From a virus: 64,000 nt of DNA. How positions within the stretch are numbered: the first letter of the stretch is position 1; each line of letters starts with the position of its first letter. This document shows positions 7,820 to 62,758 of this stretch, piece after piece. The notes beneath the pieces were generated by a model. The model was not told the origin of the DNA and made no database searches. It worked only from the letters and a program-made list of their open reading frames with translations. Position numbers and translations under genes: made by a program. Where the stretch lies: IMG/VR virus record IMGVR_UViG_3300025699_000004, one strand, 5' to 3'.

Positions 7820-7848
7820 TTGACTTGATAACTTGAAAATGTTATAAT
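7820..7848 (+). promoter_or_regulatory. sigma70-type leaderless promoter
   Basis: TTGACT-17-TATAAT-6-ATG(7855). Confidence 0.8.
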
Positions 7849-7854
7849 GCATAA

Positions 7855-7995
7855 ATGATTATAAAATTAAAAATTATAATTTGCCTCGTGTTTCTCGGAG
7901 GATGCGCATATTCTTCAAATTCAACTTGTATTAAGGATCATTCCTGTCCCGTCTCTAAGGATCATGGCCCCTGCCCTTTTTGTGAAACAAAATGA
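7855..7995 (+). CDS. Small Cys/His-rich putative lipoprotein (46 aa, below track cutoff)
   Basis: MIIKLKIIICLVFLGGCAYSSNSTCIKDHSCPVSKDHGPCPFCETK; LGGC lipobox; ATGA overlap with next gene. Confidence 0.65.
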   Translation: MIIKLKIIICLVFLGGCAYSSNSTCIKDHSCPVSKDHGPCPFCETK

Positions 7996-8552
7996 AGAAG
8001 AAAAGAGAGTTGCAGATAGGTGATTATGTCAAGGAGACTTCTTTTGTTAGAGCGGGGCGAAGAAGAGTTGGTGAAATAGTTTCTATACGGACTGACAGCA
8101 AGTCGGACCCCATTATAGAATGTATAGAATTGTGTCCAAAAGAGCTTATCCCCTTAGAGATGGGTTTTGGTCAAATGAAGAATTTTACAAGTAAAAGAAG
8201 TAAGCTAAAACACTATATACCAAGAAAAAGTATTTTCATTAAAGAAACTTTTGAAATAGGAAAGTATGTTTCTTGCAAATCAGGAACTAATCTTAAATAT
8301 GGTAGAATATCAGCTTATAGAAATCAAGAAGAAGGGCTTTATCCTAACTCTTATAACAAAGGGGAGTATAACGGACATGACCTACTTGAGTGCATCGAAA
8401 TAAACCCGAAGGCAGGGTTGCACAGAGTTGTAAGTGATGACGGATCTCCTAAAATTTTTATTGGATATCCTGAAAGGTGCAAATTAGTAAAAGTTATAGA
8501 TACGGATCAGAACGGCAAGCCAAACTTATCACCTAAATTAGATATATCATAA
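7992..8552 (+). CDS. Hypothetical protein with internal two-fold repeat
   Basis: IGDYVK...GEIVSIR...IECIELCP and IGKYVS...GRISAYR...LECIEINP. Confidence 0.7.
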   Translation: MKKKRELQIGDYVKETSFVRAGRRRVGEIVSIRTDSKSDPIIECIELCPKELIPLEMGFGQMKNFTSKRSKLKHYIPRKSIFIKETFEIGKYVSCKSGTNLKYGRISAYRNQEEGLYPNSYNKGEYNGHDLLECIEINPKAGLHRVVSDDGSPKIFIGYPERCKLVKVIDTDQNGKPNLSPKLDIS

Positions 8553-8553
8553 A

Positions 8554-9123
8554 ATGATATCTCATTCTCATAAATTTATATTTATTCATATAAATCGCAC
8601 GGGAGGAACTAGTGTCGAGCATGCCTTATCCGCATTTGGGGGAGTTAATAAATGGGAGGATTTTAATAGGCATGATGGAGCGGGAAAAATTTCAGAAAAA
8701 CCTGAGTGGAATGATTATTTTAAATTTTCTATAGTTCGCAATCCGTGGGATAAAGAATTTTCAGACTATAAATGGCACAAAAAATTAAAACACAAAAAAG
8801 TCTCAGAATATTCAACATTTAAAGATTATCTTCTGCTCCCCGAACAAACAAAGGGCAAGGGTTTATTTAGGTGGCATTCTAATCAATATGACTGGCTTAT
8901 TTCTAAAAACGGAAAATTAGAAGTTGATTTTGTGGCTAGATTCGAAAATTTACAAGAAGATTTTTATAAAATTTGCCAAAATATAAATATAGATCCAATA
9001 AGTTTACCTCATAAAAATAAAACTAAAAAGTTAGATTATAGACAGTTCTATACAGATGAAACTTATAGTTGGGTAAAAGCAAACTACAAAAAAGACATCG
9101 ATCACTTCAATTATAAATTTTAG
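8554..9123 (+). CDS. Sulfotransferase family 2-like protein
   Basis: FIHINRTGGTS, IVRNPWDKEFSDY, FVARFENLQEDF. Confidence 0.85.
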   Translation: MISHSHKFIFIHINRTGGTSVEHALSAFGGVNKWEDFNRHDGAGKISEKPEWNDYFKFSIVRNPWDKEFSDYKWHKKLKHKKVSEYSTFKDYLLLPEQTKGKGLFRWHSNQYDWLISKNGKLEVDFVARFENLQEDFYKICQNINIDPISLPHKNKTKKLDYRQFYTDETYSWVKANYKKDIDHFNYKF

Positions 9124-9199
9124 CGAGAGTAGCTCAGTTGGATAGAGCATCTGCCTTCTAAGCAGAATGTCGTGAGTTCGAGTCTCACCTCTCGTGCCA
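9123..9199 (+). tRNA. trnR: tRNA-Arg (UCU), CCA encoded
   Basis: Cloverleaf GCGAGAG...CTCTCGT, anticodon TCT; G1 is last base of upstream TAG. Confidence 0.95.
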
Positions 9200-9205
9200 T
9201 ATATC

Positions 9206-13866: not shown

Positions 13867-14013
13867 TCACAGATCTAGATCCGTGTCAAACTCTTTTTGC
13901 ATTTTGTAGATACAGAGAGCAGAAGCAATCCAAGGCAGTAGTAAACTAAGCCCATTAGTAAGACCTGCCAAGAGGAACGAGGCGGGAACGATAGAGATGA
14001 TAATAAGTTTCAT
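13867..14013 (-). CDS. Small membrane protein (48 aa, below track cutoff)
   Basis: MKLIIISIVPASFLLAGLTNGLSLLLPWIASALCIYKMQKEFDTDLDL; ATG 6 nt after TATAGT. Confidence 0.55.
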   Translation of the reverse strand: MKLIIISIVPASFLLAGLTNGLSLLLPWIASALCIYKMQKEFDTDLDL

Positions 14014-14019
14014 GCTACT

Positions 14020-14049
14020 ACTATAGACATAGATCTAGATCCGTGTCAA
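14020..14049 (-). promoter_or_regulatory. sigma70-type promoter with GATCTAGATC palindrome in spacer
   Basis: TTGACA-18-TATAGT-6-ATG; AGATCTAGATCCGTGTCAA also at 13871-13889. Confidence 0.7.
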
Positions 14050-15851: not shown

Positions 15852-16358
15852 TTAATCTACAAGAACGTTTTCGCCTTGAATTCTCATTGAAAGAATGTTT
15901 TCAAGTTTAACGTCTCGCAAGATTACCTTTTTGGTTAATTCTTCTTGAGTTGAACTTTCTCTCTTTTTTGGCAAGAATTCTTCGATTGCGCTTTTTTCAA
16001 TTGGCGCGCCGTTTTCTAAGAAATAATTTACTTCAAAAGTTTTTTCAACTTTGCATTCTAAGTAATGATTTCCTTTGTGTTCGACAAGCGCGCTTTTTGG
16101 CAAGCGAATTCCCCAACGGCGCGGTTGAACTTGAAAATCAATATTCTTGTTTTCGCGTTTCGCTTGGTTTTCTAAAGAATTAGAATAATGGAATCCAATG
16201 TTTGCCAATAATCTTGTTTTCTTTAAAACCTTTCCGTATGGGTTTCCTGTTTTCTTTAGCCGCGCATCAGTTAAGATAGTCAATCCAATTAGAGAATGCC
16301 CAACGTAGTTGAGAAAGAACGTTAATAATTTATTCGTGGTATATGTAGTTTTAATCAT
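15852..16358 (-). CDS. Hypothetical protein (start moved to MIKTTY)
   Basis: TTGACG-17-GATAAT-6-ATG at 16358. Confidence 0.75.
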   Translation of the reverse strand: MIKTTYTTNKLLTFFLNYVGHSLIGLTILTDARLKKTGNPYGKVLKKTRLLANIGFHYSNSLENQAKRENKNIDFQVQPRRWGIRLPKSALVEHKGNHYLECKVEKTFEVNYFLENGAPIEKSAIEEFLPKKRESSTQEELTKKVILRDVKLENILSMRIQGENVLVD

Positions 16359-16797
16359 AAGTACATTATCGCATAACAAGTTGATTACGTCAAATAAAAA
16401 TAAAACTTTTTTTTCAAGGTAATTGAAAAGCAAATAATCCGACAAGAAAGATTAATCCAATTAAAATCATTTGTTCGCCTTTGGTATGGAGTCAATAGCT
16501 TGTTTCCTTGTATAATTAAAACGTTTCATGATGTATAAAATCATTTGTTCGCCTTTTAATTGTTTTGTTTGTTCGCTCATTGTCTTTTAATTATATTGTT
16601 TTATTCTTCCATGCAAGATAAATCATTCTTTCTTGCCAATGTTTAAAATAGATTGTTTCAATTACTTTTCCGTTTTCTGTAATCTCTAATATGTATTTGT
16701 TATTATTCATTTTTATTTTTCGCTTGTTATTTTGTTCTATTTAAAAAATTTCCTGTTTGTATTTGACGGAAAACAGGGAAAAACGTTTTTATTCTAT

Positions 16798-17101: not shown

Positions 17102-17341
17102 TTAGTTATTTGAATTTAATCTAATATTGCGCGCATTTAATCGATTGTCAAATTCTTTTTCTGTAATGAAAAGATCCTCATTAAAAGAATAATAACAATG
17201 AGATTGTTCTACTACGTTATAAACGTATATATACCACCGCCCGCTAATTTCAGACGGGATCTCGTCGCCACCGCACGCTATTCTGTAAGGGTGTTGCCAC
17301 CCGCTTTTCCAATCGTAAGGACATTGTATTGTTTTAATCAT
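17102..17341 (-). CDS. Hypothetical protein
   Basis: Leaderless promoter, -35 at 17371-17376. Confidence 0.75.
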   Translation of the reverse strand: MIKTIQCPYDWKSGWQHPYRIACGGDEIPSEISGRWYIYVYNVVEQSHCYYSFNEDLFITEKEFDNRLNARNIRLNSNN

Positions 17342-17383
17342 ATAAACAAATTGCCACGTCTTTAATCTTACGTCAAATAAATT

Positions 17384-17706: not shown

Positions 17707-17892
17707 TTAAATCGGCAATTTCTTTAATTGAATTATTTCTTTAACTTGTTCCTTCCCAAGTCTTTGTTTTGCATCTTTTGCATTATATCCCCATTGCTCA
17801 AATTGAGATCCATCTTTTAGAATAATGAGATATGTACCGATTTGCTTTTGTGCTTCGGAGCGCCGTTCGTAGTAATCTTGATTTTTGTCCAT
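17707..17892 (-). CDS. Hypothetical protein
   Basis: TTGACA-17-TAGTTT-5-ATG. Confidence 0.7.
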   Translation of the reverse strand: MDKNQDYYERRSEAQKQIGTYLIILKDGSQFEQWGYNAKDAKQRLGKEQVKEIIQLKKLPI

Positions 17893-17935
17893 ACCATAAA
17901 CTAGTTTAATTAATTTGTTTTGTCAAATCTTTTTT

Positions 17936-18211: not shown

Positions 18212-18433
18212 TTAAATGATTTGCCCGCCATTCTTATAAAAGTTTAATTCGAATTGATCCAAAACCTTTTGTTTGTTTCCTTTGTATCCGAATAACTTTT
18301 TAACTTGTGAGTAACAAGTCGGCGCTTTATTGGTTAATCTCATTCCGTTGCCTTTTGCTTCTAATCTTAATCCAATTAGAAGATGTTTCATTTTGTAGGC
18401 GTGGATGCTTTCTTTGGTGTCTAATATAATCAT
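18212..18433 (-). CDS. Hypothetical protein
   Basis: TCGACA-17-TACTCT-6-ATG. Confidence 0.7.
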   Translation of the reverse strand: MIILDTKESIHAYKMKHLLIGLRLEAKGNGMRLTNKAPTCYSQVKKLFGYKGNKQKVLDQFELNFYKNGGQII

Positions 18434-18585
18434 AAGTATAGAGTAGTCTATATAATTCTAAATGTCGAATCTTTTTTTAAGTTTTTTTCTATTGTATTTC
18501 TTTTTGTCTTTATGTGGGCGTGACTTAGTAAATAAAATCTTTAATCTTATCTTAATTACTTTATTCTTTTTCTTTTTCTTGCTCA

Positions 18586-18792
18586 TTAGAATTTGACTTG
18601 AATGCCTAACTCATTTTTTACCCATCTACGTACAGGATGAATTGCTCGCTCGCTAAAATGCATAAGATATTGAGTATTAGCTTTTGGATGTGTCAGAAAA
18701 GCGCCGTTCTTTGTTTCCCTCATTATTACGCCGTTCTTTCTTAATTGTTTAATGACTTTTTTCATTCCGTTGGATATATGTTTATTGTTCAT
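18586..18792 (-). CDS. Small basic protein, possible HicA/dsRBD-like fold
   Basis: KKVIKQLRKNG...GAFLTHP...LMH...VRRWVKNELG pattern; own leaderless promoter. Confidence 0.45.
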   Translation of the reverse strand: MNNKHISNGMKKVIKQLRKNGVIMRETKNGAFLTHPKANTQYLMHFSERAIHPVRRWVKNELGIQVKF

Positions 18793-18828
18793 AATATACT
18801 TTTCGCATAGTTTTCGCTTAATTGCAAA

Positions 18829-19092
18829 TCATTTTACAAATATTTGATTAATGTATTTTGTTGCTTGCTTATTGCTTCCAAGTGTTACCTTAGACTGAAG
18901 GCTGTTAGCAATCTTGTTTATCTTTGTTCTCGCTTCCTTTTTATCTTCGGCTTGTACTACAATTACATTATTCGTCATTACTGAATTGATAAATGTATTT
19001 GTATTTGTATTAAACAAAGGAAGTTTTGAATCATCATTACTGAAGATATGAACGTTGCCTGTGAAGGTTTTTTGCTTGTTACTCTTTATCAT
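18829..19092 (-). CDS. Hypothetical protein
   Basis: TTGCAA 30-35 nt upstream of ATG; VQAEDKKEA motif. Confidence 0.65.
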   Translation of the reverse strand: MIKSNKQKTFTGNVHIFSNDDSKLPLFNTNTNTFINSVMTNNVIVVQAEDKKEARTKINKIANSLQSKVTLGSNKQATKYINQIFVK

Positions 19093-19502
19093 TTCTACAT
19101 ATAACTATATAATTTAAACAATTGCAAATAAAAAATTAAAAAAAATTATTGGCATTAATATTGATATCGATAAACTAATTAAAACATTCATTTAATTAAT
19201 TTGGCATATTGTGACTTAGTAAAAAGGCTAAGAAAATAACTCCTATTAATATCATTATTCTTTTTCTAATTGAATTCTAATGTATGGCTCGGAATATTCA
19301 TCCACATCCATGTCGGCATAATTACAGTCTTTAAAGTCTCCAATATCATCCACACCGTTATTGTCGGCAAAAGTATTTACCTTAAAACTACATAAATCAT
19401 TACCATTATAATCTTCTATTACTATCTTCATATATTTCTTTCTATTTATTTTATTTTCGCTTATTTTTTGATCTATTTAAAACAATAGCAAAAGACTTGG
19501 CT

Positions 19503-20213
19503 CTAATGAGCCAAGTATGCTATAGGTTTTTTAAAGTCTTTGATAAAACAATTGTTGCAATTGTTTCCTGCGCAAGTGTGATCATCTTTGTTTGACGTTG
19601 CAGGACAAACGGAATGCCCGTCGGCAATAGCCTTTTTAGCGCAACTATAGACTGACGTTCCTGCATCTAATCCTGCTATACTTGGCGCTTTTTCATCTAT
19701 ATATAAAGCGCTTGGTTTAATTACAACGTTTGGCAAGCTTGCCAAATCTTTTAGCGCATCCATTTGGCTTTCTCTAATATACTCACGTGTTGGAAACCAA
19801 AATTTAATTTGAGGAAAATTTTCGCAAACTCTTTTCCATGCATTAATATACTTTACTGAGAATAAGTCTCCACTATCGTGAACACGAAAAAGACTTGTAT
19901 CGATATTCTTTAATTTTTTAGCAACTCCGTTTTTAAAGTACTTTTTTTCGATTTGCTTAGATATCTCGTTAACAAACGTGTCGCCATTGTCTTTTCTTAA
20001 TGAATCAATAACAAAATCAGCGCGCGCTTGCAAACTAGCTTTAACATTAGAAAAAGTATAAAAACCTTTACAAGCATAACAACTTGAACAAATTAATTTG
20101 TCGAGTTTTTCTTTTACTTTAAATAAAAGTTTCGCGGCAGGACAATACTTTAATGCAGGAATGTTAAAACCTACACAAGGCATTTTGGATGGGTTGGATA
20201 ATAAGTTAATCAT
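19503..20213 (-). CDS. GP88-like phage protein (Cys-rich)
   Basis: CPAA...CSSCYACKGFY, FRVHDSGDLF, FWFPTR, CPA...C..CNNC. Confidence 0.7.
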   Translation of the reverse strand: MINLLSNPSKMPCVGFNIPALKYCPAAKLLFKVKEKLDKLICSSCYACKGFYTFSNVKASLQARADFVIDSLRKDNGDTFVNEISKQIEKKYFKNGVAKKLKNIDTSLFRVHDSGDLFSVKYINAWKRVCENFPQIKFWFPTREYIRESQMDALKDLASLPNVVIKPSALYIDEKAPSIAGLDAGTSVYSCAKKAIADGHSVCPATSNKDDHTCAGNNCNNCFIKDFKKPIAYLAH

Positions 20214-20258
20214 ATAAATAGTATTCCATAGGTTTTTCTAGATTGCAAACTTTTTTTT

Positions 20259-20291: not shown

Positions 20292-20505
20292 AATTGATTT
20301 AATTAAACTATAACGCCCAACATCCACCAAGGTTTTGATTCACTTGGCTTCTTCCATTGAAACGTTCCATCTTTTAATCTATACAGAATAAATCCATTCT
20401 TCGTTGGCTGTTTAGATAGTTTTACTGCAATAATTTTCTTATTAATATTCATTTGATTATTTTCGTTTATTTATTTTCGCTTGTCAAATTTATTTTTTGA
20501 TTATT

Positions 20506-20540: not shown

Positions 20541-20759
20541 TTAACTATTACTATCCAAATAGTTTTGAATTGCCTTGGCATCTCTTACGAGAGCCTCCAT
20601 GCTTACCCAACTATACTTGCCATCTTCTTGATCCTTCTTTTCCTTCTCAATGATGATGTCGGCGTTCTTGACGATTTCGTCTAGGTAACGATTAAGTCCT
20701 TCTGCAAGGATAATGTTACCGAGTCCGAAGTGATTTCTTATATGTTCGATTTGATCCAT
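20541..20759 (-). CDS. Hypothetical protein
   Basis: TTGCAA-16-TAGTTT-6-ATG. Confidence 0.7.
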   Translation of the reverse strand: MDQIEHIRNHFGLGNIILAEGLNRYLDEIVKNADIIIEKEKKDQEDGKYSWVSMEALVRDAKAIQNYLDSNS

Positions 20760-20811
20760 ACCAATAAACTAACACGCCTTTGTTTGATTGCAAACTTTTT
20801 TTTAAAAAAAA

Positions 20812-21884: not shown

Positions 21885-21915
21885 AATCATACTTTAAAAC
21901 AGATTAGTTTAAACG

Positions 21916-22197: not shown

Positions 22198-22210
22198 ATT
22201 TGGAAATTAT

Positions 22211-49089: not shown

Positions 49090-49301
49090 GATATTTTCTT
49101 TTCTTTAATTAATTGTTCAAAAACACTCCACATTCTTTGATAGCGAGTGTCATGCAATTGTTTAATCCCGATCAACATATTTAATAGTTGATCTTCTGTA
49201 TGCTTAATTGGAGAATCTCCGATTGCATATATTATTGTATCTATATCTTCCCCTATTTGGTGGAGATTACTCATTGCATCTTCTAGTTCAAATCTATTCA
49301 T
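49086..49301 (-). CDS. Hypothetical protein
   Basis: TTGACA-17-TAAGGT-6-ATG. Confidence 0.75.
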   Translation of the reverse strand: MNRFELEDAMSNLHQIGEDIDTIIYAIGDSPIKHTEDQLLNMLIGIKQLHDTRYQRMWSVFEQLIKEKKIS

Positions 49302-49341
49302 GGCTTTACCTTATCATTATGTTTTTTATTTGTCAATAAAA

Positions 49342-50412
49342 TTAATCGCATTCTGAGATTAATTTCTTAATCGCCAAGTCTTTGGCTTTTACTTCGCACT
49401 CCCATTTCGCCTCTTGATCGGGATTTATAGCTATAGTTGGAGGTAGGTTCTTGTAGCTGAAATAATCACCATGAGCGCGAGGATTGGGGTCGCCGTCATT
49501 CTTGCCTTCAGACCAATGAAAGACAGGAGCGATGAAATCTCCTTCTTCTAAAATCTTAGCTTTACTTTTTTGATTTACCCAAGTATAAGCACATCTTTCT
49601 GCTTGCCATGCAACGTTTAAAACTTCAGATGGATTACAAGTATCATGTAAATTATCGTAACAAACAGGTAAATTGAATTTAAATTGTTGAAAGATATAAT
49701 CACTAAACTTAATTATATTATCGACATTCCATGCTCCACGATCTTCATTTTCTATTGTCAATCTATTATAAACCCCACTATCACATTTCATTAAATTGTC
49801 ATAGAAATTCTCTGCGACTTCAGAAATCTGATAATTTAAAAAAGATTCAGAATCAACGCCCTCTTTAACGTCTTCATGTTCCGCTCTAGGTAATGGAGCA
49901 TTGATATGTATATTCATTGGCGCGGTATGATCTTGTGGTAAACCTAGCATATCAAGAACACTAGCTTGAAAATTTAATTCTGTTATGGTTCTATCTACCG
50001 CGTCTAAGTTTTTAGATGCAAGAACATTAAATTGATCGGGGTGAGAGCCTATTGATATATTGAATTGCCTCGCAATCTTACCTGCAAAGCATAACTCTTC
50101 CTTTATTTGGGTGCAATCGGGCAAATCTTCGATAGAAACCTCTGTAGCATCATCAGTAATAAGAGGAAACAAAGCGGAGCTAAGGCGATAATGTAAAATA
50201 TTATTTTCAGAGCAATGGCGAATAATGTAACGAGTAGTGCGAGCATTATGTAAAATCCTTTCTGATAATCTTTCAACAGCTTCATCCTTACCATCTTTTA
50301 CACAGATATTATTAAATCCCCTACGAGTCATTGTTCTAAAAGAATATTTAACTTTATCTTTTTCTTTTAGTATCTCACTTATACACGTTAATCCCAATAT
50401 TTTAGTTGTCAT
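49342..50412 (-). CDS. uvsE: UV DNA damage endonuclease
   Basis: LGLTCIS, YRLSSALFP, HPDQFNVLAS, RLTIENED, D.LH, HWSE, CEVKAKD. Confidence 0.9.
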   Translation of the reverse strand: MTTKILGLTCISEILKEKDKVKYSFRTMTRRGFNNICVKDGKDEAVERLSERILHNARTTRYIIRHCSENNILHYRLSSALFPLITDDATEVSIEDLPDCTQIKEELCFAGKIARQFNISIGSHPDQFNVLASKNLDAVDRTITELNFQASVLDMLGLPQDHTAPMNIHINAPLPRAEHEDVKEGVDSESFLNYQISEVAENFYDNLMKCDSGVYNRLTIENEDRGAWNVDNIIKFSDYIFQQFKFNLPVCYDNLHDTCNPSEVLNVAWQAERCAYTWVNQKSKAKILEEGDFIAPVFHWSEGKNDGDPNPRAHGDYFSYKNLPPTIAINPDQEAKWECEVKAKDLAIKKLISECD

Positions 50413-50501
50413 TCTGTTATGTTAGCTTATTTTTTAAAAAATGTCAATTAAAAAGTGTAATTGCATTTTATGTAAGAATAATAATATTAATTGCGAAAAA
50501 A

Positions 50502-51024: not shown

Positions 51025-51510
51025 TTACACTTGGTTTTTATATCTTACCATTAATAAGTCAATGGGACTATTTGTAAAAATATCATGTATCATAGTATTT
51101 ATTATTCTTATACTGCCCCCCGCTAAACCACAAGATATTCCGTAAGGTAAACCAAAAATTATTTCATCTCCACTATTTTTTTTAAAAACTAAATCTTTTT
51201 CTACTTGTGATAGCGATAAGTAAAATGCTTCGTAATTAACTTCTCTGCCGTTCCCTACTTTTTCTTGTGTGTAAAGGTTATATATGCCTTTTTGACATTC
51301 TCCATTGTCAGCCCAACCAAAAGACCAACTGCCTAAGATATTTTCCCCTCTTTTATTTGCTATGCAGTCGGCTTTCCAAGCCAACGGGTAACGATCTTTT
51401 ATCTGTTTAGCGATTCCTGCTCCCATCATGTTTAATGTATTACAAGAATGGGCGATTGTGTTGATTCTATTTGGGAAATCAAGAAGATTGCCATCTATCA
51501 TGTTTATCAT
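51025..51510 (-). CDS. Macro domain (ADP-ribose processing) protein
   Basis: GNLLD, IAHSCN..NMMGAGIAKQIK.RYP, IYNLYTQ, PYGISCGLAGG. Confidence 0.85.
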   Translation of the reverse strand: MINMIDGNLLDFPNRINTIAHSCNTLNMMGAGIAKQIKDRYPLAWKADCIANKRGENILGSWSFGWADNGECQKGIYNLYTQEKVGNGREVNYEAFYLSLSQVEKDLVFKKNSGDEIIFGLPYGISCGLAGGSIRIINTMIHDIFTNSPIDLLMVRYKNQV

Positions 51511-51541
51511 AAAAATATATTAGAGAAAAAATGCATAAGAG

Positions 51542-52615
51542 TCAAGAAGATTCTTCCTTCATCTTTGATGTCTTTTTCAAAATCCCTTTTTTATATAAAT
51601 GAGTTTCCTTAGCTCTTATAGAACTAATAGGCTTTCTTAATTTTTTAGCTATTTCTTTACCTGGAACACCTTTATTTGAAAGATTTATTAATAATTCTTC
51701 ATCTTTTTTAGAGAAGGGGAATTTTTGTTTTGGAGGCTTTTTCTTCAAAAGAAATCCTAGCTTTAACCAACGGGATTGATTGATTATTTGATACTCTGTG
51801 AATTTTCCTTTAAAAAATTTTTTACTAACATATTCAGCCGTAAAAGATAAAGGGTTGCTTATTAATAACAAAGTTAATTCGGTTTTATCTTTGTTATTAA
51901 AATAAATGTGACCACTTGGTTCAAAGAAATCATTTATAGCTTTATTGCCTTCCGATATTTTTTCAAAAAAATCATCATTTAATATTTTACTATTCATGCC
52001 ATCTTTTAAAGAACCTATAGATTTAGTTTTTGCGACTATTTTTTGAAAACTTAAATCAATAGCTTGTCTTGTAACCCCAAATTCTTTAGCTATATTTTTT
52101 TGCTTTTCTCCTGACTGAAGCTTTAAGAAAATTTTTAACTCGTTTTTAGTTAATTTAGACTTTATTTCGTTTAAAATATATTCATACTTATTTCCAATAT
52201 TTATACTTTCAACACTAGGTTCAACCCCGCTTTGCTCAAGAGCTAAATCTAAAGAAGTCTTCTCTCCGTCCTCAGTAAAGTATACATTATCAGACCTCTT
52301 TGAAACCCATTTTCCAGATTTTTTTTCCGAGCAAGTTAAGCTTGAATATTTCCATTTAATTAAATTCCTACAATAAATAAAAGCAGTATGCTTAAACGAA
52401 TCATATTTAAAATCTTTACCTATATAGTTAATTATTTTCTCTTTGCTTTTGATTAAATACAAATTAACTTCAGATAATAATTCGTCAGAATCTAAAGGGT
52501 GAGACTTGCCTTTATATTTTCCTATTATCTTCACCAAGTCTCCTTGGAAAGACTCTAAGAAATTATCAAATAATTTTAATCTTTTGCGGTCTACTATATT
52601 TTGTTGGATATTCAT
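51542..52615 (-). CDS. Divergent sigma70-like factor with extra C-terminal HTH
   Basis: Region-2-like DELLSEVNLYL...FKHTAFIYCRN; region-4 KLT..E..IF...KQKNIAKEFGVTRQAI. Confidence 0.65.
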   Translation of the reverse strand: MNIQQNIVDRKRLKLFDNFLESFQGDLVKIIGKYKGKSHPLDSDELLSEVNLYLIKSKEKIINYIGKDFKYDSFKHTAFIYCRNLIKWKYSSLTCSEKKSGKWVSKRSDNVYFTEDGEKTSLDLALEQSGVEPSVESINIGNKYEYILNEIKSKLTKNELKIFLKLQSGEKQKNIAKEFGVTRQAIDLSFQKIVAKTKSIGSLKDGMNSKILNDDFFEKISEGNKAINDFFEPSGHIYFNNKDKTELTLLLISNPLSFTAEYVSKKFFKGKFTEYQIINQSRWLKLGFLLKKKPPKQKFPFSKKDEELLINLSNKGVPGKEIAKKLRKPISSIRAKETHLYKKGILKKTSKMKEESS

Positions 52616-53609
52616 TAGTCCAATTTATTTTATAAAGTTTTTTGCTTGTTACTAGAATTTTACAAAGATGAGAATAGGTTAAACCTAAATATTTAGCTGT
52701 TTTTATTCTGCTATTATTAAACTTAGGAAGGGCGTTTTTTATTTTTGGTATTATTTCATTATAAAAAAAATCTCTTTTTTTTGCTTTTGTTTTTTTTGAA
52801 TTTTCAATTTTTCTTTTTTCTTGCTCTTTAGTTAAATTAGAAAAAGGTATATGCCCATTACTCATTAATTTTTTCATTGTTTTTTTTTGGATTGAAGATC
52901 TGATTTTTGTAGGCAAAATAGGAGGTTTTTGCTTTGGGAAAGGATATTCTTTATTCCAATCGACAGTGTATATTCTTTTCATATATGAATAAAATAAATT
53001 TCTAGAAATACCCATCTCTTTTGAAGCTTTTAGTCTGACATTATTATTATTTGTTAAAGCCTCTATCATTTTCTCCTTTACCGCATTCATCTCTTCCTTG
53101 TCCCATTTGACCCAATGACCTTTGTAGATCATACCTTTCCTATCCTCTAAGGCTCTCGTCTTTCCTTTTCTGTTTATATGTGACCAATTTTCTTTACCCG
53201 ATTTGAAGCCTATGGATAAAATATGATCAAGATCAGTTTTATTAAATCGATTTGTGTACCCTTCTTTTCTGATTATTTCTTTTTTAAATAGAACATTGTT
53301 ATAATTAGGGAATGAAGCTTTTTTTATTTGCTCCCAATTCTCAAAACTTAACTTTCTATTTGCCTGGATTTTATAATTACCATGAAACATGAATCCCTGA
53401 ATAGCTTTTACCTTTATAAGGGGATCGTCTTTCTTTAATTTCTTAATTAATGTTTTTTTTGCAGAATCATACGATTTCGCTCTTATAAAAGTCTTAAAAT
53501 CTTTTTCGACACCATCAGAATATTTTTCTGTATAATTTATATTCCAATATTGATCGAAAGGGAAAGTTTTTGATCGGAATTTTTTTTGACAACTACTTCT
53601 TTTTTTCAT
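52566..53609 (-). CDS. Unknown domain X plus two Fis-like HTH repeats
   Basis: DQYWNI...FIRAKSYD.A...MFH...W..I...FPN.NN.LFK; EALT.NNNV..KASKEMGISR and NAL.KFNNS..KTAKYLGLT. Confidence 0.65.
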   Translation of the reverse strand: MKKRSSCQKKFRSKTFPFDQYWNINYTEKYSDGVEKDFKTFIRAKSYDSAKKTLIKKLKKDDPLIKVKAIQGFMFHGNYKIQANRKLSFENWEQIKKASFPNYNNVLFKKEIIRKEGYTNRFNKTDLDHILSIGFKSGKENWSHINRKGKTRALEDRKGMIYKGHWVKWDKEEMNAVKEKMIEALTNNNNVRLKASKEMGISRNLFYSYMKRIYTVDWNKEYPFPKQKPPILPTKIRSSIQKKTMKKLMSNGHIPFSNLTKEQEKRKIENSKKTKAKKRDFFYNEIIPKIKNALPKFNNSRIKTAKYLGLTYSHLCKILVTSKKLYKINWTNEYPTKYSRPQKIKII

Positions 53610-54087
53610 TTAATAAAATTTTAAGTTTTCTAATCATTTCTGATTTTGATCTAGACACTAAATTGACAGGAGTTTTTGTTTTTTGGGAAATTTCTTTAAC
53701 ATTATAACCTTTATTTAAATAATAATATATATTATATTGCTTTTCGGACAAATAAGCTTTCACCCTTTTATCTAAAGCCTTTTTTTCATCCGAAACTAAA
53801 TCGTGAAAAGGGTCTGATATAATAGGAAAATCTTGATGTTCGAAATTAATATATCTTCTACCCCATCTCTTTTTGTTTTGTAAGTATTTTTTTATTTGAA
53901 AACGACAAATTGTAATAGCCCAATTTAAAAGTTTTTTTGAGCGATCAAATTCAAGCCTTTTTTTTATTAAAATTAAATTTACATTTTGAATAATATCTTT
54001 AGCATCATTATTGCAATAAACCACACTATTTACATATTTTTCAATATTTGGTTGTATTATTTCTATCTGTTGATCAGAAAACGTCAT
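53593..54087 (-). CDS. ECF-type sigma70 factor
   Basis: DAKDIIQNVNL.L.KK..EFD.SK.LLNWA.TI.RFQ; region-4 HTH GYNVKEISQ. Confidence 0.75.
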   Translation of the reverse strand: MTFSDQQIEIIQPNIEKYVNSVVYCNNDAKDIIQNVNLILIKKRLEFDRSKKLLNWAITICRFQIKKYLQNKKRWGRRYINFEHQDFPIISDPFHDLVSDEKKALDKRVKAYLSEKQYNIYYYLNKGYNVKEISQKTKTPVNLVSRSKSEMIRKLKILLNEKKK

Positions 54088-54091
54088 AGAA

Positions 54092-54946
54092 TTAGTATTT
54101 CGTCTTTAGCCATCCCTTATACTTCTTTTTGTTAAAAATCCCCATAACTTGATGTTGGTGATACCTGCCCTTAAAAAGATCGCAGATTTCTTGAGCTGTA
54201 AAATGCTTGGGTTTTTTAGAAACCATTTTGAATATTTTTTCAAAATCTTTTTGTCTTTGGCTATTAATTTTTCCTAAATCTTTTTCCGAGGAAAATAAAT
54301 CACTCATAGCTTTCATTCCTATTTCTATGTTTTCCCAAGAAGAATCTTCATTTAATTTTATTTTTATCCTAGCTCTAAGTTTATTTTTTAAATTTATGAA
54401 GCTTGCCGATATTGCTTGATGGGTTACGCCCATTTGATTAGATATATTAAATTGATTCTCGCCTTTCATTAAGGATTCTAATATTTTGACCTCTATTTCT
54501 GTAAACCAATTAGTGTAGTCCTTTATTATTTCAAAATAATATTCAATTTTTTGCTTGGAGTCAAAATCCAAATCGGCGTTTTCCCCGCAAGTTTCGCAAG
54601 CGATCTCAAAAGAAGTTTTTGAACCTTCTTCCGTATGGATTACAGAGTTGTTGCGCCGAGAAACATACTTAGAGCCTAGTTCTCGATAGTGATCCCATGA
54701 GGGGGCTTTTCTGGAATAAATACATACGATATATCTAAAACTCTCAAAAGAAAATTCATTAAACCCTTTTTCCGAATCTCTAAAAGAGATAATTGAGTCC
54801 ATCTTTTTCATCAAGGTTAAATTTAAATTGCTAGCTATTTCCTCTACAGACAATACATTAAATGCTTTTCTGCCTTTGGAAACTAAACGGTGTAAATCAT
54901 CTTGAAATTCCGATAGATATTTTAAAAATTTTTCTTGATCAGTCAT
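54092..54946 (-). CDS. Divergent sigma70-like factor (paralog of 51542)
   Basis: Shares SK.VS.R....TE.G.KTS and HTH GE.Q.NI...GVT.QAI with 51542 protein. Confidence 0.65.
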   Translation of the reverse strand: MTDQEKFLKYLSEFQDDLHRLVSKGRKAFNVLSVEEIASNLNLTLMKKMDSIISFRDSEKGFNEFSFESFRYIVCIYSRKAPSWDHYRELGSKYVSRRNNSVIHTEEGSKTSFEIACETCGENADLDFDSKQKIEYYFEIIKDYTNWFTEIEVKILESLMKGENQFNISNQMGVTHQAISASFINLKNKLRARIKIKLNEDSSWENIEIGMKAMSDLFSSEKDLGKINSQRQKDFEKIFKMVSKKPKHFTAQEICDLFKGRYHQHQVMGIFNKKKYKGWLKTKY

Positions 54947-54950
54947 TTTT

Positions 54951-55376
54951 TTAAACCTCTTCTTTTATTTTTTCTGAGACAAGGAATTTGAATAAAAAAT
55001 TATTTTCATTGGGGAACGCACAATTTCTAATATCTTCCCAATCTTTAATAGTTATTAACTTTGATTTTGTAGTTCCGCCCTTTTTTACAAATTGATAATT
55101 TTTATGAAACATGTGACCCTTGAAGTTTTTGAAAGAAGTATTAACTTTATCTTTTGATAGTTTTTTCTTTAATATAGATATGGCATAGTCAAAAGACCTA
55201 GCTTTCACGATTGTTATATATTCTTTTTCCCAAGAAAAATGATCGCATTCCGTAAAATAAATTTTCCAAAACTGATCAATGGAGAATTTTTTATTTTTAA
55301 AAGAATTCTGTTTTAATTTATTATTCATCATCGAAATTACTGTCAACTTCCTGTTTGAAATTTGGGTTGTTTTCAT
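54951..55376 (-). CDS. Stand-alone unknown domain X protein
   Basis: DQFWKI...IVKARSFD.A...MFH...DW..I...FPNENN.LFK. Confidence 0.7.
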   Translation of the reverse strand: MKTTQISNRKLTVISMMNNKLKQNSFKNKKFSIDQFWKIYFTECDHFSWEKEYITIVKARSFDYAISILKKKLSKDKVNTSFKNFKGHMFHKNYQFVKKGGTTKSKLITIKDWEDIRNCAFPNENNFLFKFLVSEKIKEEV

Positions 55377-56055: not shown

Positions 56056-56413
56056 AATCATCATCTTTCTCTTCTTCTCGTTTTTCTTCGTATGGAGGAC
56101 TCCAATAAACATCTTTAAATAAAACTAGGTCAATTTTTGTTGGAGCTATCCAATCATTAATTAAAGCTTCGAATTCTTGATTCGCATTGTATCTCCACTT
56201 GTCGGCATCTCTGCTACGATCATTTTGATCATCATCATATTGCAAATGATCGAAATCATAGACAGGAACTTCTATGCCCACTGGCTCTCCGAAAGGCACT
56301 GGTTCATTTGTGCTTTCGTAAAAGAATTCATTGTCTTCGCCAGCATAAACAACTTCTTTTGAACTTAGCGAAGCGAACTTATCATCATCTAATATTAGTT
56401 TTATTTTATTCAT
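56045..56413 (-). CDS. Acidic hypothetical protein (start moved to MNKIK)
   Basis: TTGACT-17-TATAAT-7-ATG. Confidence 0.7.
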   Translation of the reverse strand: MNKIKLILDDDKFASLSSKEVVYAGEDNEFFYESTNEPVPFGEPVGIEVPVYDFDHLQYDDDQNDRSRDADKWRYNANQEFEALINDWIAPTKIDLVLFKDVYWSPPYEEKREEEKDDDFIF

Positions 56414-56432
56414 AATTTGAATTATAGCATAT

Positions 56433-56654
56433 TTATTTTTTAGAGTCAAGCTTTTTTTGAAAATATATTCTAACTATAGCTTTTCTAACTACTGCAAAAC
56501 TAAAAAGTATAGAAGAACTCCAAAGTGTAATTTGTAAAGCATTGAAATTTAAATTTAAGCAGAGTGCGATAACGATGTAATTAAGCGGAACCATTATTAC
56601 AGTACCTAGTATAGTGTCTACAGTAGCCTCTTTAAATGCGTCAAGTTTTTTCAC
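56433..56654 (-). CDS. Small two-TM membrane protein
   Basis: Hydrophobic pattern; coupled to MTase. Confidence 0.7.
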   Translation of the reverse strand: MKKLDAFKEATVDTILGTVIMVPLNYIVIALCLNLNFNALQITLWSSSILFSFAVVRKAIVRIYFQKKLDSKK

Positions 56655-57709
56655 TTCGTAATTGTTTTAACTATCTCAGCACACATCGTAGGAGGAAAGC
56701 ACTCCCCCAATACTTTTCTAATAAAGCCTTCTGAATATTTATTTTTAAATTTATTTAAAAATTCAGGTGGCAAACCGCATAAAATAGATAATTCCTCAAC
56801 CGACATAACTCTAGCATCAGAATAAGTTCCGTCTATTAGTTTTTTGCCTGGATGAACATTATTTTGACTAGATATAGCTCCATTGCACATTGTGACAGTA
56901 GGAGAAGGTTTATCCCAATCTATTCTTTTATATGTAGTCATAAACCCTTTTATTCTTCTGCCATCTTTTTTGGGGTAATGAATTTTATTATTAAATGCAG
57001 TTTGACCTGTCGGAGTGTTTTTCATCCAAATTATATGGTTAGAATTATGTTTTTTTGCATAATGCCAAGGTAAGTTGGATTTTCTTTTAGATTCTAAAGA
57101 AGGTAGGTGCCCTATAGCATCTCTAACTGTAATCAATTCTTGTTGAGGCTCAGGATGCTTCCATTTTCCATTTCTAGATATTAAACCTATAAACCTTTTT
57201 CTAGATTGAGGGGTGTTATAATCTTGAGCATTCAAAACCTTATGATTTAATTTGAAATCAGAAGGTAATCTTGATTTAATATAATGAATCATATTTATAA
57301 TTTTTCCGTCAATATTTAAATATGTTTCAGACATAGCTGGAACATTTTCAATCAACATGTAATCTGGAGAAAGATGATTAAATACATCTAAAGCATGAGA
57401 TATTAATGAATTTCTAGGGTCTTTGGGGTGCCTTTTCGCATTAGCGACACTCATCCCTTGGCATGGAGGTGTGGCTATAATTAAATTTATGCCTTTATCG
57501 TCTATACCGCTCGAACAAAGATTGTAAATGCTTTGTTTGGTAGAATCTTCGGTTATATCTCCACAAACCACTTCGGCTTCGGGATGAAGGTCTTTATACA
57601 TCAAACATCTATCGTTATGTAGCTCATTTGCCACACAGACATCAATGCCAATATTCTTTAAGTAAACATCGCCAAAACCTACATTTGAAAATAAAGAAAG
57701 AGCTTTCAT
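56651..57709 (-). CDS. dcm: C5-cytosine DNA methyltransferase
   Basis: Motifs I (SLFSNVG), IV (PPCQGMS), VI (ENV), VIII (QSRKR), X (GECFPP). Confidence 0.9.
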   Translation of the reverse strand: MKALSLFSNVGFGDVYLKNIGIDVCVANELHNDRCLMYKDLHPEAEVVCGDITEDSTKQSIYNLCSSGIDDKGINLIIATPPCQGMSVANAKRHPKDPRNSLISHALDVFNHLSPDYMLIENVPAMSETYLNIDGKIINMIHYIKSRLPSDFKLNHKVLNAQDYNTPQSRKRFIGLISRNGKWKHPEPQQELITVRDAIGHLPSLESKRKSNLPWHYAKKHNSNHIIWMKNTPTGQTAFNNKIHYPKKDGRRIKGFMTTYKRIDWDKPSPTVTMCNGAISSQNNVHPGKKLIDGTYSDARVMSVEELSILCGLPPEFLNKFKNKYSEGFIRKVLGECFPPTMCAEIVKTITK

Positions 57710-57717
57710 TAGCTCTT

Positions 57718-57746
57718 ATTATAGCAAAATAAGAATTACATGTCAA
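57718..57746 (-). promoter_or_regulatory. Consensus sigma70 promoter of MTase, -35 embedded in HNH gene end
   Basis: TTGACA-17-TATAAT-8-ATG. Confidence 0.8.
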
Positions 57747-60059: not shown

Positions 60060-60704
60060 TTAGAAGTTTACAGACAAAGAAAGACCTACTACAGACTCTC
60101 CATCAGAAATTAAATCTGAGTCAAAATAATCATACGACAATCCGAGCGTGGAATTTTCCGACACAGACTTGGAGGCAATAACTCCTAGTCCGTAATAATC
60201 TTCATTAATTGAAGATGTCACGTCCGTATTTCCATATAATGCATGAAAACAAAGATCCGCAATTTCATTATCCACTCCATGTTTTACAGATAATTCGAAT
60301 GTATACAAATCATCACTTGTATTCCTATATACAGTAAGTGTTGGAGAAAGAACAGAACTCAACCCTAACGATACTCTCGCATCTAAATTAGAATCTCCAG
60401 CCACTTCTTCAAAGTGCTCCAATCCAATGTACACATTAAGTAGATCAGATAACTGCTTAGATGCTCCAGCTTCCATTAGGTAAGAGTCAGACCCCCCTGC
60501 TGTTGGTTGGTTCGTTGAGACTCCTGCGGAAGCTCTCAAGCCAGCCAAATCCGAACCTACAGATAGAGACGACTGAACTGACTCCGAAGAAATTACAGCC
60601 CCCCTTCTGAAATAATCAGATGCATACCCTACAGATAAAGAACCTGCAATGGCGACGTTAGAAATTAGACACAAAAGTGCCGTAATATATGTTTTTGTTT
60701 TCAT
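60060..60704 (-). CDS. Outer-membrane beta-barrel (TorF/Gcw_chp-like)
   Basis: Signal peptide, SDYFRRG motif, alternating strands, C-terminal Phe (SLSVNF). Confidence 0.7.
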   Translation of the reverse strand: MKTKTYITALLCLISNVAIAGSLSVGYASDYFRRGAVISSESVQSSLSVGSDLAGLRASAGVSTNQPTAGGSDSYLMEAGASKQLSDLLNVYIGLEHFEEVAGDSNLDARVSLGLSSVLSPTLTVYRNTSDDLYTFELSVKHGVDNEIADLCFHALYGNTDVTSSINEDYYGLGVIASKSVSENSTLGLSYDYFDSDLISDGESVVGLSLSVNF

Positions 60705-60728
60705 AGTTTACTTATTTATGTAAAAAAA

Positions 60729-60950
60729 TTAATCGTCAAAGAATCCTTCTTCTGGCTCAAATTCTATGTCCTCGCCTAATAATTCAATAACTTTGTCATC
60801 TATAATACTTTTAATTTTTGAAAATTCAAGTTTTTTTTCCTCAAGTGCTCCAATTAAAGTAAAAGTATTAATGTCAAACTCTTCTAAGTACCTTTCGCAA
60901 AGGTCATCTAAGTCAAATCTAAATGCATCAGTTTGTTCGTTAAAATCCAT
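60729..60950 (-). CDS. Acidic hypothetical protein
   Basis: ORF track. Confidence 0.7.
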   Translation of the reverse strand: MDFNEQTDAFRFDLDDLCERYLEEFDINTFTLIGALEEKKLEFSKIKSIIDDKVIELLGEDIEFEPEEGFFDD

Positions 60951-60975
60951 ATGATATAAATTATGTTACAATAAT

Positions 60976-61488
60976 TTAGTTTTTTTTCCAAATAGTTTTT
61001 CTTTTTATTTTTTTAATGTCAGAAGTTTTTATTAAGGCTATCTCTTCTTGATCTCTCCTTTGATATATTCTATATTTTGCTTCTGCACATGTTTTTACAA
61101 ACTCTTTTTTTCTATCTATCGCTTTTTCGCACAAGTTTTTTAAAGATATCCTGTCAACGATCAAGAAGTAATCTTTCTTTTCAAATGCTATGTAATCACA
61201 ATCGCCATAAAGCCATCCATGAAAGCCGTCTGCTGTTTTAAACTCAACCCAAGTCCATGTATCTGAATACGATTTATCGTAAGCACATATTTTTTTTCTA
61301 GCTTTTACATCTACGCCTTTTACAGAATCTTCTTTTTTTAGAAAATAATCTATTCTATTTTTTTTATTTTGATCTACAGTAGAACTTTTTATTTTAAAAC
61401 CATTCTGGACAGCTAGAGCAACAAAAATTCTTTCAGCTTTATTGCCTATTTCTGCCGCGTTTCTTTTGTCGTATTTATTTTTATACAT
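60976..61488 (-). CDS. PD-(D/E)XK-type nuclease-like protein
   Basis: G..AE helix, IDYFL, VDVKARK, W.EF. Confidence 0.6.
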   Translation of the reverse strand: MYKNKYDKRNAAEIGNKAERIFVALAVQNGFKIKSSTVDQNKKNRIDYFLKKEDSVKGVDVKARKKICAYDKSYSDTWTWVEFKTADGFHGWLYGDCDYIAFEKKDYFLIVDRISLKNLCEKAIDRKKEFVKTCAEAKYRIYQRRDQEEIALIKTSDIKKIKRKTIWKKN

Positions 61489-61497
61489 AGAGTTCTA

Positions 61498-62442
61498 TTA
61501 ATTAATTGACTTTATTAATTTTCTGCCTTTAGGGGTTATTTTCCTTTTTACGTCTATCTCCATTAGATTTTGCTTTAATAAATATTTTTCATGGTCACTT
61601 CTTAGAGAAGTCGAGCTTAACCCTGTTTTAGCCGCCAACATCGATAATGTGCATTCACCTTTCTCTTGTAATACTTCTAAGATTTGTTTTTCGGTACATG
61701 TGATACCATAAGGTAATACACCCAAAGTGTCACAAAAACTCAAATAATCCTTCTTTGTGAAATTATTCAAATTCTCGGAATCAGCAAAGAGATTGATGTC
61801 TTTTGCTTTCATGACCGCATTTCTTGCATTCCCCCTAACAACGTCACTGAGGTCTTTCAAAACATTTTTATCGACTTTACATTCTAGAGAATTGGATAGG
61901 ATGTCGCCTAATTCAACATTATTATAAGACTCGAAATCAACAGAGGTTAATCGATCTTTTAGCGGTGGAAAAAGTTTATCACTTTCCGTTGTGGCAAACA
62001 TGAAAGTTTGTTTCTTGAAATTGAAAGGAAATCGAGTTTCTTTCCAAGTAACTTCTCTAACATGAGAAGAGCTCGTGTCCAATATAGTGAGAAGAGCCAT
62101 AGTTAAATCTCTAGGCAACTCATGAGCTTCATCAAATAATATAGTGATCTCATTATCTAATATCAAAGGAATGAAAATTTGATCAAAAAAGTGATCGTTG
62201 TTTTTTATTGTAGAGCAATTTAACTCCAAAACAGGTCTGCGGCTTCCATCTTGATTCCTTAAATTGGCGGCGAATGAATTAGCGAATGCTGTTTTCCCCA
62301 AACCTTTCGCTCCAAAAAATCCCAAAAACGGACAAATGCTAGTTTTGTTAAAAGCTTTTAAATAAAAATTAAGTTTCTTCTTTACGTTTTTTTGCCCTAC
62401 TAAATGATCAAATGCATTTTTCTTCATAATTTTACTCCTCAT
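61498..62442 (-). CDS. ruvB: RuvB-like AAA+ branch-migration ATPase
   Basis: FD.LVGQ..VK..L, G.KGLGKT, LFDEAH.L, ATT...L..PL.DR, G.AR.A, LG....G.T..E, E.YL.K. Confidence 0.8.
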   Translation of the reverse strand: MRSKIMKKNAFDHLVGQKNVKKKLNFYLKAFNKTSICPFLGFFGAKGLGKTAFANSFAANLRNQDGSRRPVLELNCSTIKNNDHFFDQIFIPLILDNEITILFDEAHELPRDLTMALLTILDTSSSHVREVTWKETRFPFNFKKQTFMFATTESDKLFPPLKDRLTSVDFESYNNVELGDILSNSLECKVDKNVLKDLSDVVRGNARNAVMKAKDINLFADSENLNNFTKKDYLSFCDTLGVLPYGITCTEKQILEVLQEKGECTLSMLAAKTGLSSTSLRSDHEKYLLKQNLMEIDVKRKITPKGRKLIKSIN

Positions 62443-62698
62443 CGAATTTTGTTAATTTATATTGAATCGAATTAGCTTCAGAATCTTCTGTTTTGCTTAA
62501 TTCAATTGACGTGTCGTTAGTGTGAATGCCTAAACTTTCCAACCAAACCCTGCTGACAGGAATGGGCGTTTTTTCCCCTATATAATCTTTAAGATCTAAG
62601 AAGGGAACCTTCACAAAGGAAGTTGCTCCTTTTTTTCTTCCGCTTCCCGATTTTCTAGAGGAACCATCTTTGTTTAATGTTCTATTTTTCTTACTCAT
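62432..62698 (-). CDS. Small basic hypothetical protein
   Basis: TTGACA-17-GATAAT-6-ATG; GSGRKKG. Confidence 0.75.
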   Translation of the reverse strand: MSKKNRTLNKDGSSRKSGSGRKKGATSFVKVPFLDLKDYIGEKTPIPVSRVWLESLGIHTNDTSIELSKTEDSEANSIQYKLTKFDEE

Positions 62699-62758
62699 GG
62701 ATACATTATCTCATAGAAGTTAAGTTTTGTCAAGTTTTTTTAAATTTTTTAAAAAAAA

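Follow-up and report, generated by a model that had tools for sequence, protein, structure and literature searches.

Housekeeping-type promoters at a fixed distance from the ATG point to leaderless early mRNAs in a clade of uncultured marine phages

The cI mRNA of phage lambda, which is transcribed from the sigma70 promoter PRM, starts at its AUG. A similar arrangement was found repeatedly in the DNA analysed here, a stretch of 64,000 nucleotides from the virus record IMGVR_UViG_3300025699_000004 of IMG/VR (hereafter, the window), in which about 30 housekeeping-type promoters appear to be fixed to the ATG at which the first genes of short operons begin. As with cI, phage genes would be read from a sigma70 promoter into mRNAs beginning with AUG, although in lambda, a temperate phage, this concerns one regulatory gene and not a programme of about 30 units. 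In cellular genomes, a -10 box adjoining the open reading frame (ORF) is described as the hallmark of the 'group C' genomes of GeneMarkS-2, to which 90% of Actinobacteria, 97% of Deinococcus-Thermus, 5.6% of Proteobacteria and 3.4% of Firmicutes are assigned (Lomsadze et al. 2018, PMC6028130), and this architecture has been dissected in Deinococcus (PMC12340547). According to these accounts, a Pribnow-type box lies 6-8 nt before the first gene's start codon, no Shine-Dalgarno (SD) sequence is present, the distance to the start codon is important, and expression is raised by a -35 box located 17 bp upstream, all of which resembles the units of the window. The latter differ in belonging to a phage, in their strongly conserved full -35 box TTGACA with an A/T-rich tract upstream, and in the internal genes, which mostly lack an SD sequence, whereas those of group C are described as using a ribosome-binding site (RBS).

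Among phages, the Thermus phage phiYS40 is reported to produce mostly leaderless middle and late mRNAs and to shift the levels of host IF2 and IF3 (PMC3594737). Both phages are large and share a temporal class that is leaderless, here putatively so, and extended -10 promoters of the TGnTA type (PMC3594737, PMC4842269). In phiYS40, however, this class is described as middle/late and the host phylum as one in which leaderless mRNAs are the norm, whereas the class in the window is presumed to be early, carries a full -35 box and is accompanied by no translation-factor gene that could be found (see below). In Bradyrhizobium japonicum, 192 genes are described with a transcription start site (TSS) exactly on the start codon and a TGnTA extended -10 box upstream (PMC4842269). 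This box resembles the TRTGn-TAnnnT sequence of the window, but the Bradyrhizobium data are mapped TSSs of a cellular genome, while the present starts are predictions from sequence. No leaderless transcript was detected by differential RNA sequencing (dRNA-seq) in phage phiKZ (PMC8244752), and untranslated regions (UTRs) of 26-491 nt are given for phage AR9 (PMC5312081). A literature search did not find a leaderless early programme in a marine phage, and the term 'leaderless' as found in the cyanophage literature belonged merely to citations of GeneMarkS-2. The units described here are a well-supported candidate for a new example, in a marine phage clade, of an already known way to express genes.

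To describe the spacing, d was defined as the number of nucleotides from the first base of the -35 hexamer to the ATG, and the hexamers TTGACN, TTGCAA and TCGACA were located on both strands by a regular expression. The first-pass annotation of the window had listed 22 starts with a hexamer at a constant distance, and both the upstream sequences and the scan placed it at exactly d=35 in all 22, with 6 nt between the -10 box and the ATG in every case. The four near-misses that it named deviated by one nucleotide, being longer at 14013 and 56413 (d=36) and shorter at 17892 and 20759 (d=34). Seven further units (20452, 29294, 42247, 30078, 26283, 57709 and, weakly, 60704) were added to this list; in near-misses and added units the -10 box could also be found 5, 7 or 8 nt from the ATG. 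The check proposed in the annotation, positional enrichment of TTGAC relative to starts, gave a sharp peak at d=35. On the minus strand TTGAC occurs 105 times and is followed by an ATG at distance 35 in 22 cases, compared with a mean of 2.39 TTGAC-ATG pairs (sd 1.7, maximum 7) at the other distances from 6 to 119 (Poisson P = 2e-14). Twenty-one of these 22 ATGs open an ORF of at least 45 aa, and 19 are also the first possible start codon of such an ORF, the background being 0.25 per distance (P = 3e-29). Five pairs at distance 35 were found on the plus strand, but only that at 7855 leads into an ORF of 45 aa or more. At distance 19 there is another, minor peak, which corresponds to ATGs contained within the TATGn of extended -10 boxes. 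When an automatic rule was applied, a leader of 0 nt was predicted for 22 of 138 minus-strand ORFs.

The same spacing was observed in related phages. A search of IMG/VR with the rIIA protein of the window yielded 14 related loci (43-98% identity, contigs up to 214 kb), all 14 of which showed the d=35 peak (for example 14 sites in locus L011 against a background of 1.39). The closest complete relative, G004 (179,985 bp), was taken in full. Its gene strand carries 15 long-ORF sites at d=35, where 0.40 were expected, and all of these lie within 0-20 kb and 160-180 kb; not a single one was found on the gene strand between 20 and 160 kb, a region that holds terminase, tail, replication and sugar-synthesis genes. 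A genome-wide loss of the peak, named in the annotation as a possible refutation, was therefore not observed; instead the peak was restricted to a single block of ~40 kb, which is what would be expected of one temporal class. The pattern TTGAC-N30-ATG gave 22 forward matches in G004 and 4 in the reversed control. There was no enrichment in Prochlorococcus phage P-SSM2 (5 and 4 matches against 12 and 4 in the controls), in Synechococcus phage Syn9 (2 and 4), in Cellulophaga phage phi38:1 (1 and 3) or in Pseudomonas phage PA5oct (3 and 0 against 4 and 7 in the controls), and Pelagibacter phage HTVC008M showed no d=35 peak in the 97 of 147 kb examined. A few single, well-formed examples of the unit do occur in P-SSM2 and PA5oct. 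The geometry is thus real, highly non-random, conserved and region-specific.

When the 22 window sites were numbered with the A of the ATG as +1, the -35 region showed T-35 in 22, T-34 in 21, G-33 in 22, A-32 in 19, C-31 in 19 and A-30 in 15 sites, and the -10 region showed A-11 and T-7 in 21 sites each. An A/T-rich tract extends from about -53 to -38, and a T-A-T-G run occupies -17 to -14. The conserved positions are those of the textbook numbering of a housekeeping (sigma70-type) promoter. A -35 TTGACA, a spacer of 17±1 bp and a -10 TAnnnT with A-11 and T-7 are shown by the sequence logos both of the 22 window sites and of 54 non-redundant sites of the relatives, and an independent consensus promoter scan lists many of these units. 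A Bacteroidetes-type promoter was also considered. The consensus of that type is TTTG/TAnnTTTG; this reading was rejected, since conservation is seen at A-32, C-31 and A-30 but not at T-8, T-6 and G-5.

Three signatures are independent of the way in which the sites were found: the base at -1, the start codon and an apparent compensation of weak -10 boxes by TGn. RNA polymerases favour start sites at which a pyrimidine at -1 is followed by a purine at +1. A pyrimidine preceded the ATG at 20 of 25 d=35 sites of the window, but only at 32 of 87 other ATG genes (p = 1.9e-4). In the relatives, where +1 is likewise A, a pyrimidine was found at 52 of the 54 sites; C alone accounted for 31, on a strand with 14% C. 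Leaderless initiation requires AUG, and the start codons at d=35 (ATG, GTG and TTG, respectively) numbered 19, 0 and 0 in the window, 15, 0 and 1 in G004, and 62, 0 and 0 in loci L005-L014. The statement in the annotation that boxes lacking T at -12 carry an extended -10 element holds for the window, where TGn is present in all 8 such boxes and in 4 of the 14 with T-12 (Fisher p = 0.0017), but in the relatives it is a trend only (see below).

Orthologues were looked up for 12 window units, and 60 of them had an N-terminus that aligned from residues 1-6. In 38 of these 60 the -35 box was kept at d=35 or 36, the spacer and discriminator sequences having diverged. Some of the other 22, in which no box was recognized by the regular expression, have a degenerate hexamer in that position (TTGCAG, TTGCTA or TTGTGC), while others have the same ATG behind an SD-like or coupled context, such as the L011 orthologue of 31345, which reads aaggaaaaacATG. 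The same ATG hence appears with and without an SD-like context, suggesting that it is the true start in both settings.

The promoter units may also have been exchanged. A cassette with 46 of 50 nt identical was observed before non-orthologous genes in L011 (the orthologue of 38858) and L006 (that of 41043), with the join at the ATG, which suggests recombination at promoter units. In the PeSL (promoter-early stem-loop) cassettes of T4-type phages, the promoter is accompanied by a stem-loop that acts as a terminator (Arbiol et al. 2010, PMC2839356). From this description they resemble the present units in that many strong sigma70-like promoters lie among small non-essential early genes, and in that non-orthologous genes of relatives have at least one cassette in common. 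The fixed geometry might accordingly be a by-product of copying or recombining one mobile promoter cassette, not selected for leaderlessness, and the near-duplicate promoters of 22197/22495 and 20213/20759 would fit such an origin as well. This explanation is highly improbable, however, as the spacing is kept although most spacers and discriminators differ among sites and orthologues, and as the base preferences at -11, -7 and -1 are retained in the 54 non-redundant sites. In addition, a terminator-like hairpin within about 150 nt upstream was found in only 3 of the 26 listed units (14013, 20213 and 22495), so that the pairing which characterizes PeSLs does not hold here. Shuffling of cassettes and selection for leaderless starts are, moreover, compatible with each other.

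To assess translation signals, an SD sequence was called when the duplex energy with the anti-SD decamer was -6 kcal/mol or lower for the best start within 90 nt, and the same metric was used throughout. SD sequences were found at 20 of 107 window ORFs (19%; 11.3-64 kb) and 37 of 212 ORFs of G004 (17%), compared with 32 of 36 ORFs in Bacillus phage Basilisk (89%), 35 of 70 in HTVC008M (50%) and 8-11% at random positions. The clade barely uses SD. Many internal genes lie directly behind the gene before them or overlap with it, or else are preceded by A-rich sequence. Alternative starts with an SD sequence downstream of the ATGs occurred at the background rate only. The predicted 5' ends had a mean minimum free energy of -1.3 kcal/mol over +1 to +40, and the AUG was unpaired in 23 of 25. 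Leaders of 30-42 nt were found at the minus-strand starts 29630, 28380, 25150, 17085, 39410 and 42702, where an SD sequence tends to be present. It seems that genes of the phage either lack a leader or have a standard one with SD, and the host ribosome can presumably use SD.

Promoter numbering, the pyrimidine at -1, the restriction to ATG, the lack of an upstream in-frame start, the N-termini of orthologues and the clade-wide geometry all agree with the claim of the first-pass annotation that many early genes are translated from leaderless mRNAs. Its leaderless part was supported by each of these sequence-level tests; the label 'early' was taken from position, the sites lying in one ~40-kb block of small genes in G004. 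Leaderless early mRNAs are regarded as the best explanation of the geometry and as probable, with the start site, leaderless translation and timing as predictions. A number of observations weigh against this explanation. A transcription start 7 nt downstream of the -10 box is a rule derived from E. coli-type polymerases, which may not be that of the host. The -10 boxes are poor at 18433 (TACTCT), 18792 (GAAAAG) and 19092 (TATATG), and 60704 is weak too. In the 54 sites of the relatives, compensation by TGn was not significant (8 of 16 boxes without T-12 and 9 of 38 with it, p = 0.11), and the 22 of 60 orthologues without a recognized box mean that the layout is optional. Ordinary leaders, 22-51 nt in length, were found at twelve promoter-proximal genes, five of them with an SD sequence, indicating that the phage also uses the standard route. 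The low 5' structure was found equally in other genes (p = 0.57) and is compatible with leaderless initiation rather than diagnostic of it. As to individual units, the ORF at 7855 has only 46 codons, in-frame start codons are present further upstream at 16358 and 21884, and an in-frame GTG with an SD-like match lies downstream of 62698.

This GTG would also fit an alternative in which the promoters are genuine, but the TSS is displaced from the A by a few bases, or a downstream start codon is used, so that leaders would be very short or ordinary. The choice of TSS varies by 1-2 nt among polymerases, the spacings of 5, 7 or 8 nt occur at 14013, 17892, 20759, 56413, 26283 and 57709, and 17 long-ORF sites at d=36 were found beside the 62 at d=35 in L005-L014. 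We consider this alternative quite unlikely in view of the sharp peak at a single spacing and of the pyrimidine-A step at 52 of the 54 sites of the relatives. It is also opposed by the ATG being the first start codon in 19 of 22 cases, by orthologues that align from residue 1, and by the background rate of downstream starts with SD.

Members of the Sigma70_r2 family were detected in all five relatives searched, and the window has matches to Sigma70_r2, GerE and HTH_8. The sigma-like genes sit among the units, downstream of the unit at 56449-56411, and phage sigma factors probably take over after a phase of host-promoter use. It could be argued from their presence, and from a timing deduced from position, that the boxes are read by a phage sigma factor instead of the housekeeping sigma of the host, in which case the units would be middle genes, possibly still leaderless. 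This is judged unlikely. The motif is the textbook housekeeping consensus with a UP-like A/T tract and extended -10 elements, and the sigma genes, being themselves downstream of such a unit, need a promoter that is read by the host. Furthermore, the rest of G004 lacks the motif, and a box of the TGTGTAtAAT type precedes some of the genes there.

That second, rarer box, TGTGTA(t/a)AAT, has no -35 element and was observed 5-7 nt upstream of start codons, in one case of a GTG. Its sites are at 45477 and 12854 (minus strand) in the window and at 24606, 26089 and 42599 in G004, where it also precedes large genes outside the early block. It may represent a middle or late promoter class that likewise adjoins start codons, and the leaderless design may thus extend beyond the early class.

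For leaderless early mRNAs, the following course of events is proposed. Each unit comprises an A/T-rich tract, the -35 box TTGACA, a 17-bp spacer often with TRTGn, the -10 box TAnnnT, 6 nt (rarely 5, 7 or 8) and the ATG. Host RNA polymerase with the housekeeping sigma factor would start at the A of the ATG, and the resulting mRNA would have neither a 5' UTR nor an SD sequence. At the first cistron, ribosomes would recognize the 5'-terminal AUG by the known leaderless route, via 70S or 30S-IF2-fMet-tRNA. Later cistrons, which adjoin or overlap or have A-rich leaders without SD, would be translated by coupling or SD-independent initiation. Phage sigma factors would then redirect the polymerase to the rest of the genome.

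The first-pass annotation had further proposed that the layout could bias or sabotage SD-led initiation of the host. This was not supported: the phage hardly uses SD itself, late genes included, and genes for bS21, for IF3 (IF3/IF3_C) or of the PemK/MazF type were not found in the five relatives. The layout looks more like an adaptation to a host whose translation is independent of SD. A more radical version, in which the clade has given up SD-led initiation wholly, encodes a factor that disables it in the host and uses the layout as a host shut-off device, appears very unlikely; it is retained because the host signals conflict and because SD use is near background and below the 50% of HTVC008M. 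First cistrons may in that case be initiated at the 5'-terminal AUG and later ones by coupling or from A-rich leaders.

The idea that the layout constrains the identity of the host is fair in principle. The rIIA, DUF932, AAA, TerL and Pol III alpha proteins gave distant matches only (23-35% identity), to phages of many hosts. Almost all TerL matches were to Firmicutes phages, and the distant relatives of TerL and Pol III alpha are mainly in phages of Firmicutes and actinobacteria. The Pfam matches include families named after mycobacteriophages or actinophages (L5 gp82, GP88), WhiB was absent from the five relatives, and the taxa listed in a protein atlas for the pyrophosphatase and the ClpC-like protein were mixed or Bacillota-leaning. 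These signals (Firmicutes-like TerL, actinophage families, a lambda-like tail tip, PhoH, AdoMet decarboxylase) conflict, and no host is named here.

Table 1. Promoter-ATG units of the window and the neighbouring sigma-factor-like genes (d, nucleotides from the first base of the -35 hexamer to the ATG).
Feature	Coordinates	Strand	Remarks
Unit, start 7855	7820..7857	+	TTGACT-17-TATAAT (TGt)-6-ATG; 46-codon ORF leading a plus-strand operon; least certain ORF
Unit, start 16358	16356..16393	-	TTGACG-17-GATAAT (TGc)-6-ATG; in-frame TTG codons upstream
Unit, start 17341	17339..17376	-	d=35
Unit, start 18433	18431..18468	-	TCGACA; weak -10 TACTCT
Unit, start 18792	18790..18827	-	TTGCAA; TGc + GAAAAG
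Unit, start 19092	19090..19127	-	TTGCAA; -10 TATATG
Unit, start 20213	20211..20248	-	GP88-family protein, 236 aa; terminator-like hairpin 20291-20268 just upstream
Unit, start 21884	21882..21919	-	Second ATG 6 nt upstream, adjoining the -10 box
Unit, start 22197	22195..22232	-	d=35
Unit, start 22495	22493..22530	-	Promoter near-identical to that of 22197
Unit, start 25600	25598..25635	-	L5 gp82-family protein; TTGAC at d=35 in 4/9 orthologues
Unit, start 31345	31343..31380	-	-35 box at d=35/36, spacers diverged, in 8/9 orthologues; ninth AAGGA-led, same ATG
Unit, start 32295	32293..32330	-	d=35
Unit, start 32833	32831..32868	-	SprT-like protein
Unit, start 38858	38856..38893	-	d=35
Unit, start 41043	41041..41078	-	d=35 kept in 7/10 orthologues
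Unit, start 42973	42971..43008	-	d=35
Unit, start 44446	44444..44481	-	Promoter kept in 0/4 aligned orthologues
Unit, start 49301	49299..49336	-	d=35
Unit, start 50412	50410..50447	-	UvdE-family endonuclease, 356 aa
Unit, start 51510	51508..51545	-	d=35
Unit, start 62698	62696..62733	-	TTGACA-17-GATAAT (TGa); in-frame GTG with SD-like match 28 codons downstream
Near-miss, start 14013	14011..14049	-	d=36; 18-nt spacer, TATAGT
Near-miss, start 17892	17890..17926	-	d=34
Near-miss, start 20759	20757..20793	-	d=34, TTGCAA
Near-miss, start 56413	56411..56449	-	d=36; TTGACT-17-TATAAT; upstream of sigma-factor genes
Added unit, start 20452	20450..20487	-	d=35; 49-codon ORF
Added unit, start 29294	29292..29329	-	d=35; orthologues with shorter N-termini and their own promoter-ATG unit
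Added unit, start 42247	42245..42282	-	d=35; TTGACA-17-TAAGAT
Added unit, start 30078	30076..30114	-	d=36; d=35/36 in 7/7 orthologues with aligned N-terminus
Added unit, start 26283	26281..26320	-	d=37; 43-codon ORF
Added unit, start 57709	57707..57746	-	d=37; perfect TTGACA-17-TATAAT with TG; C5 DNA methylase
Weak added candidate, start 60704	60702..60739	-	d=35; -10 AATAAG
Sigma-factor-like genes (context)	51542..55376	-	Sigma70_r2, GerE and HTH_8 matches

The window has a G+C content of about 32%, and nearly all genes between 11.2 kb and 64 kb are carried by the minus strand. It derives from an uncultured tailed phage, and the genomes of its relatives measure about 180-214 kb; no cultured phage similar at the DNA level was found by megablast. 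Between 60 and 90% of the sampled words of positions 16001-26000 were present in four metatranscriptome runs of one marine study, which is why the phage is considered marine, although presence there is not proof of expression. The rIIA protein is encoded at 34806-37133 and is adjoined by an ORF of the size of rIIB (33441-34772), which has no family match and is so named from its position. Other products are two DUF932 proteins, an AAA protein, a GP88-family protein, a UvdE endonuclease, a C5 methylase, an inorganic pyrophosphatase and sigma-factor-like proteins, together with many small ORFs without a family and three tRNA genes. The complete relative G004 encodes a ClpC-like ATPase, a DnaE-type polymerase, RNR, RecA, DnaB, PhoH, AdoMet decarboxylase, a SET-domain protein, an arginyl-tRNA-protein-transferase-like protein and a large set of sugar/sulfate genes, as well as a lambda-like tail tip (M, L, JAB, J-like).

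Further observations were made on starts and promoters in the window. The pyrophosphatase ORF (58307-58807, minus strand) starts with a GTG at 58807, and the copy in the protein atlas begins at residue 14, read as M; its start has thus been called differently by others. A promoter TTGACT-16-TATAAT at 7485-7520 (plus strand) ends 7 nt before a tRNA-Thr gene (7520-7595), and its predicted start site would be the 5' end of the mature tRNA-Thr. About a dozen starts, including those of leadered genes such as rIIA, are overlapped by the motif (A/T)GCGAAA or have it no more than about 30 nt upstream; examples on the minus strand are 37136-37142, 38417-38423, 28380-28386, 32295-32301, 6443-6449 and 19455-19461. 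Each of the two 7-mers has 19 matches in the window, compared with about 11 expected.

The units are compact, self-contained promoter-ATG cassettes and might be of use as expression parts. If the prediction of leaderless mRNAs is true, gene callers that search for an RBS would misplace such starts. About 30 early genes of a widespread marine phage clade would then be expressed without a ribosome-binding leader, and the host would have to be one that translates mRNAs with a 5'-terminal AUG well and does not rely on SD. The arrangement would thereby bear on how the early take-over of the host is wired in environmental phages.

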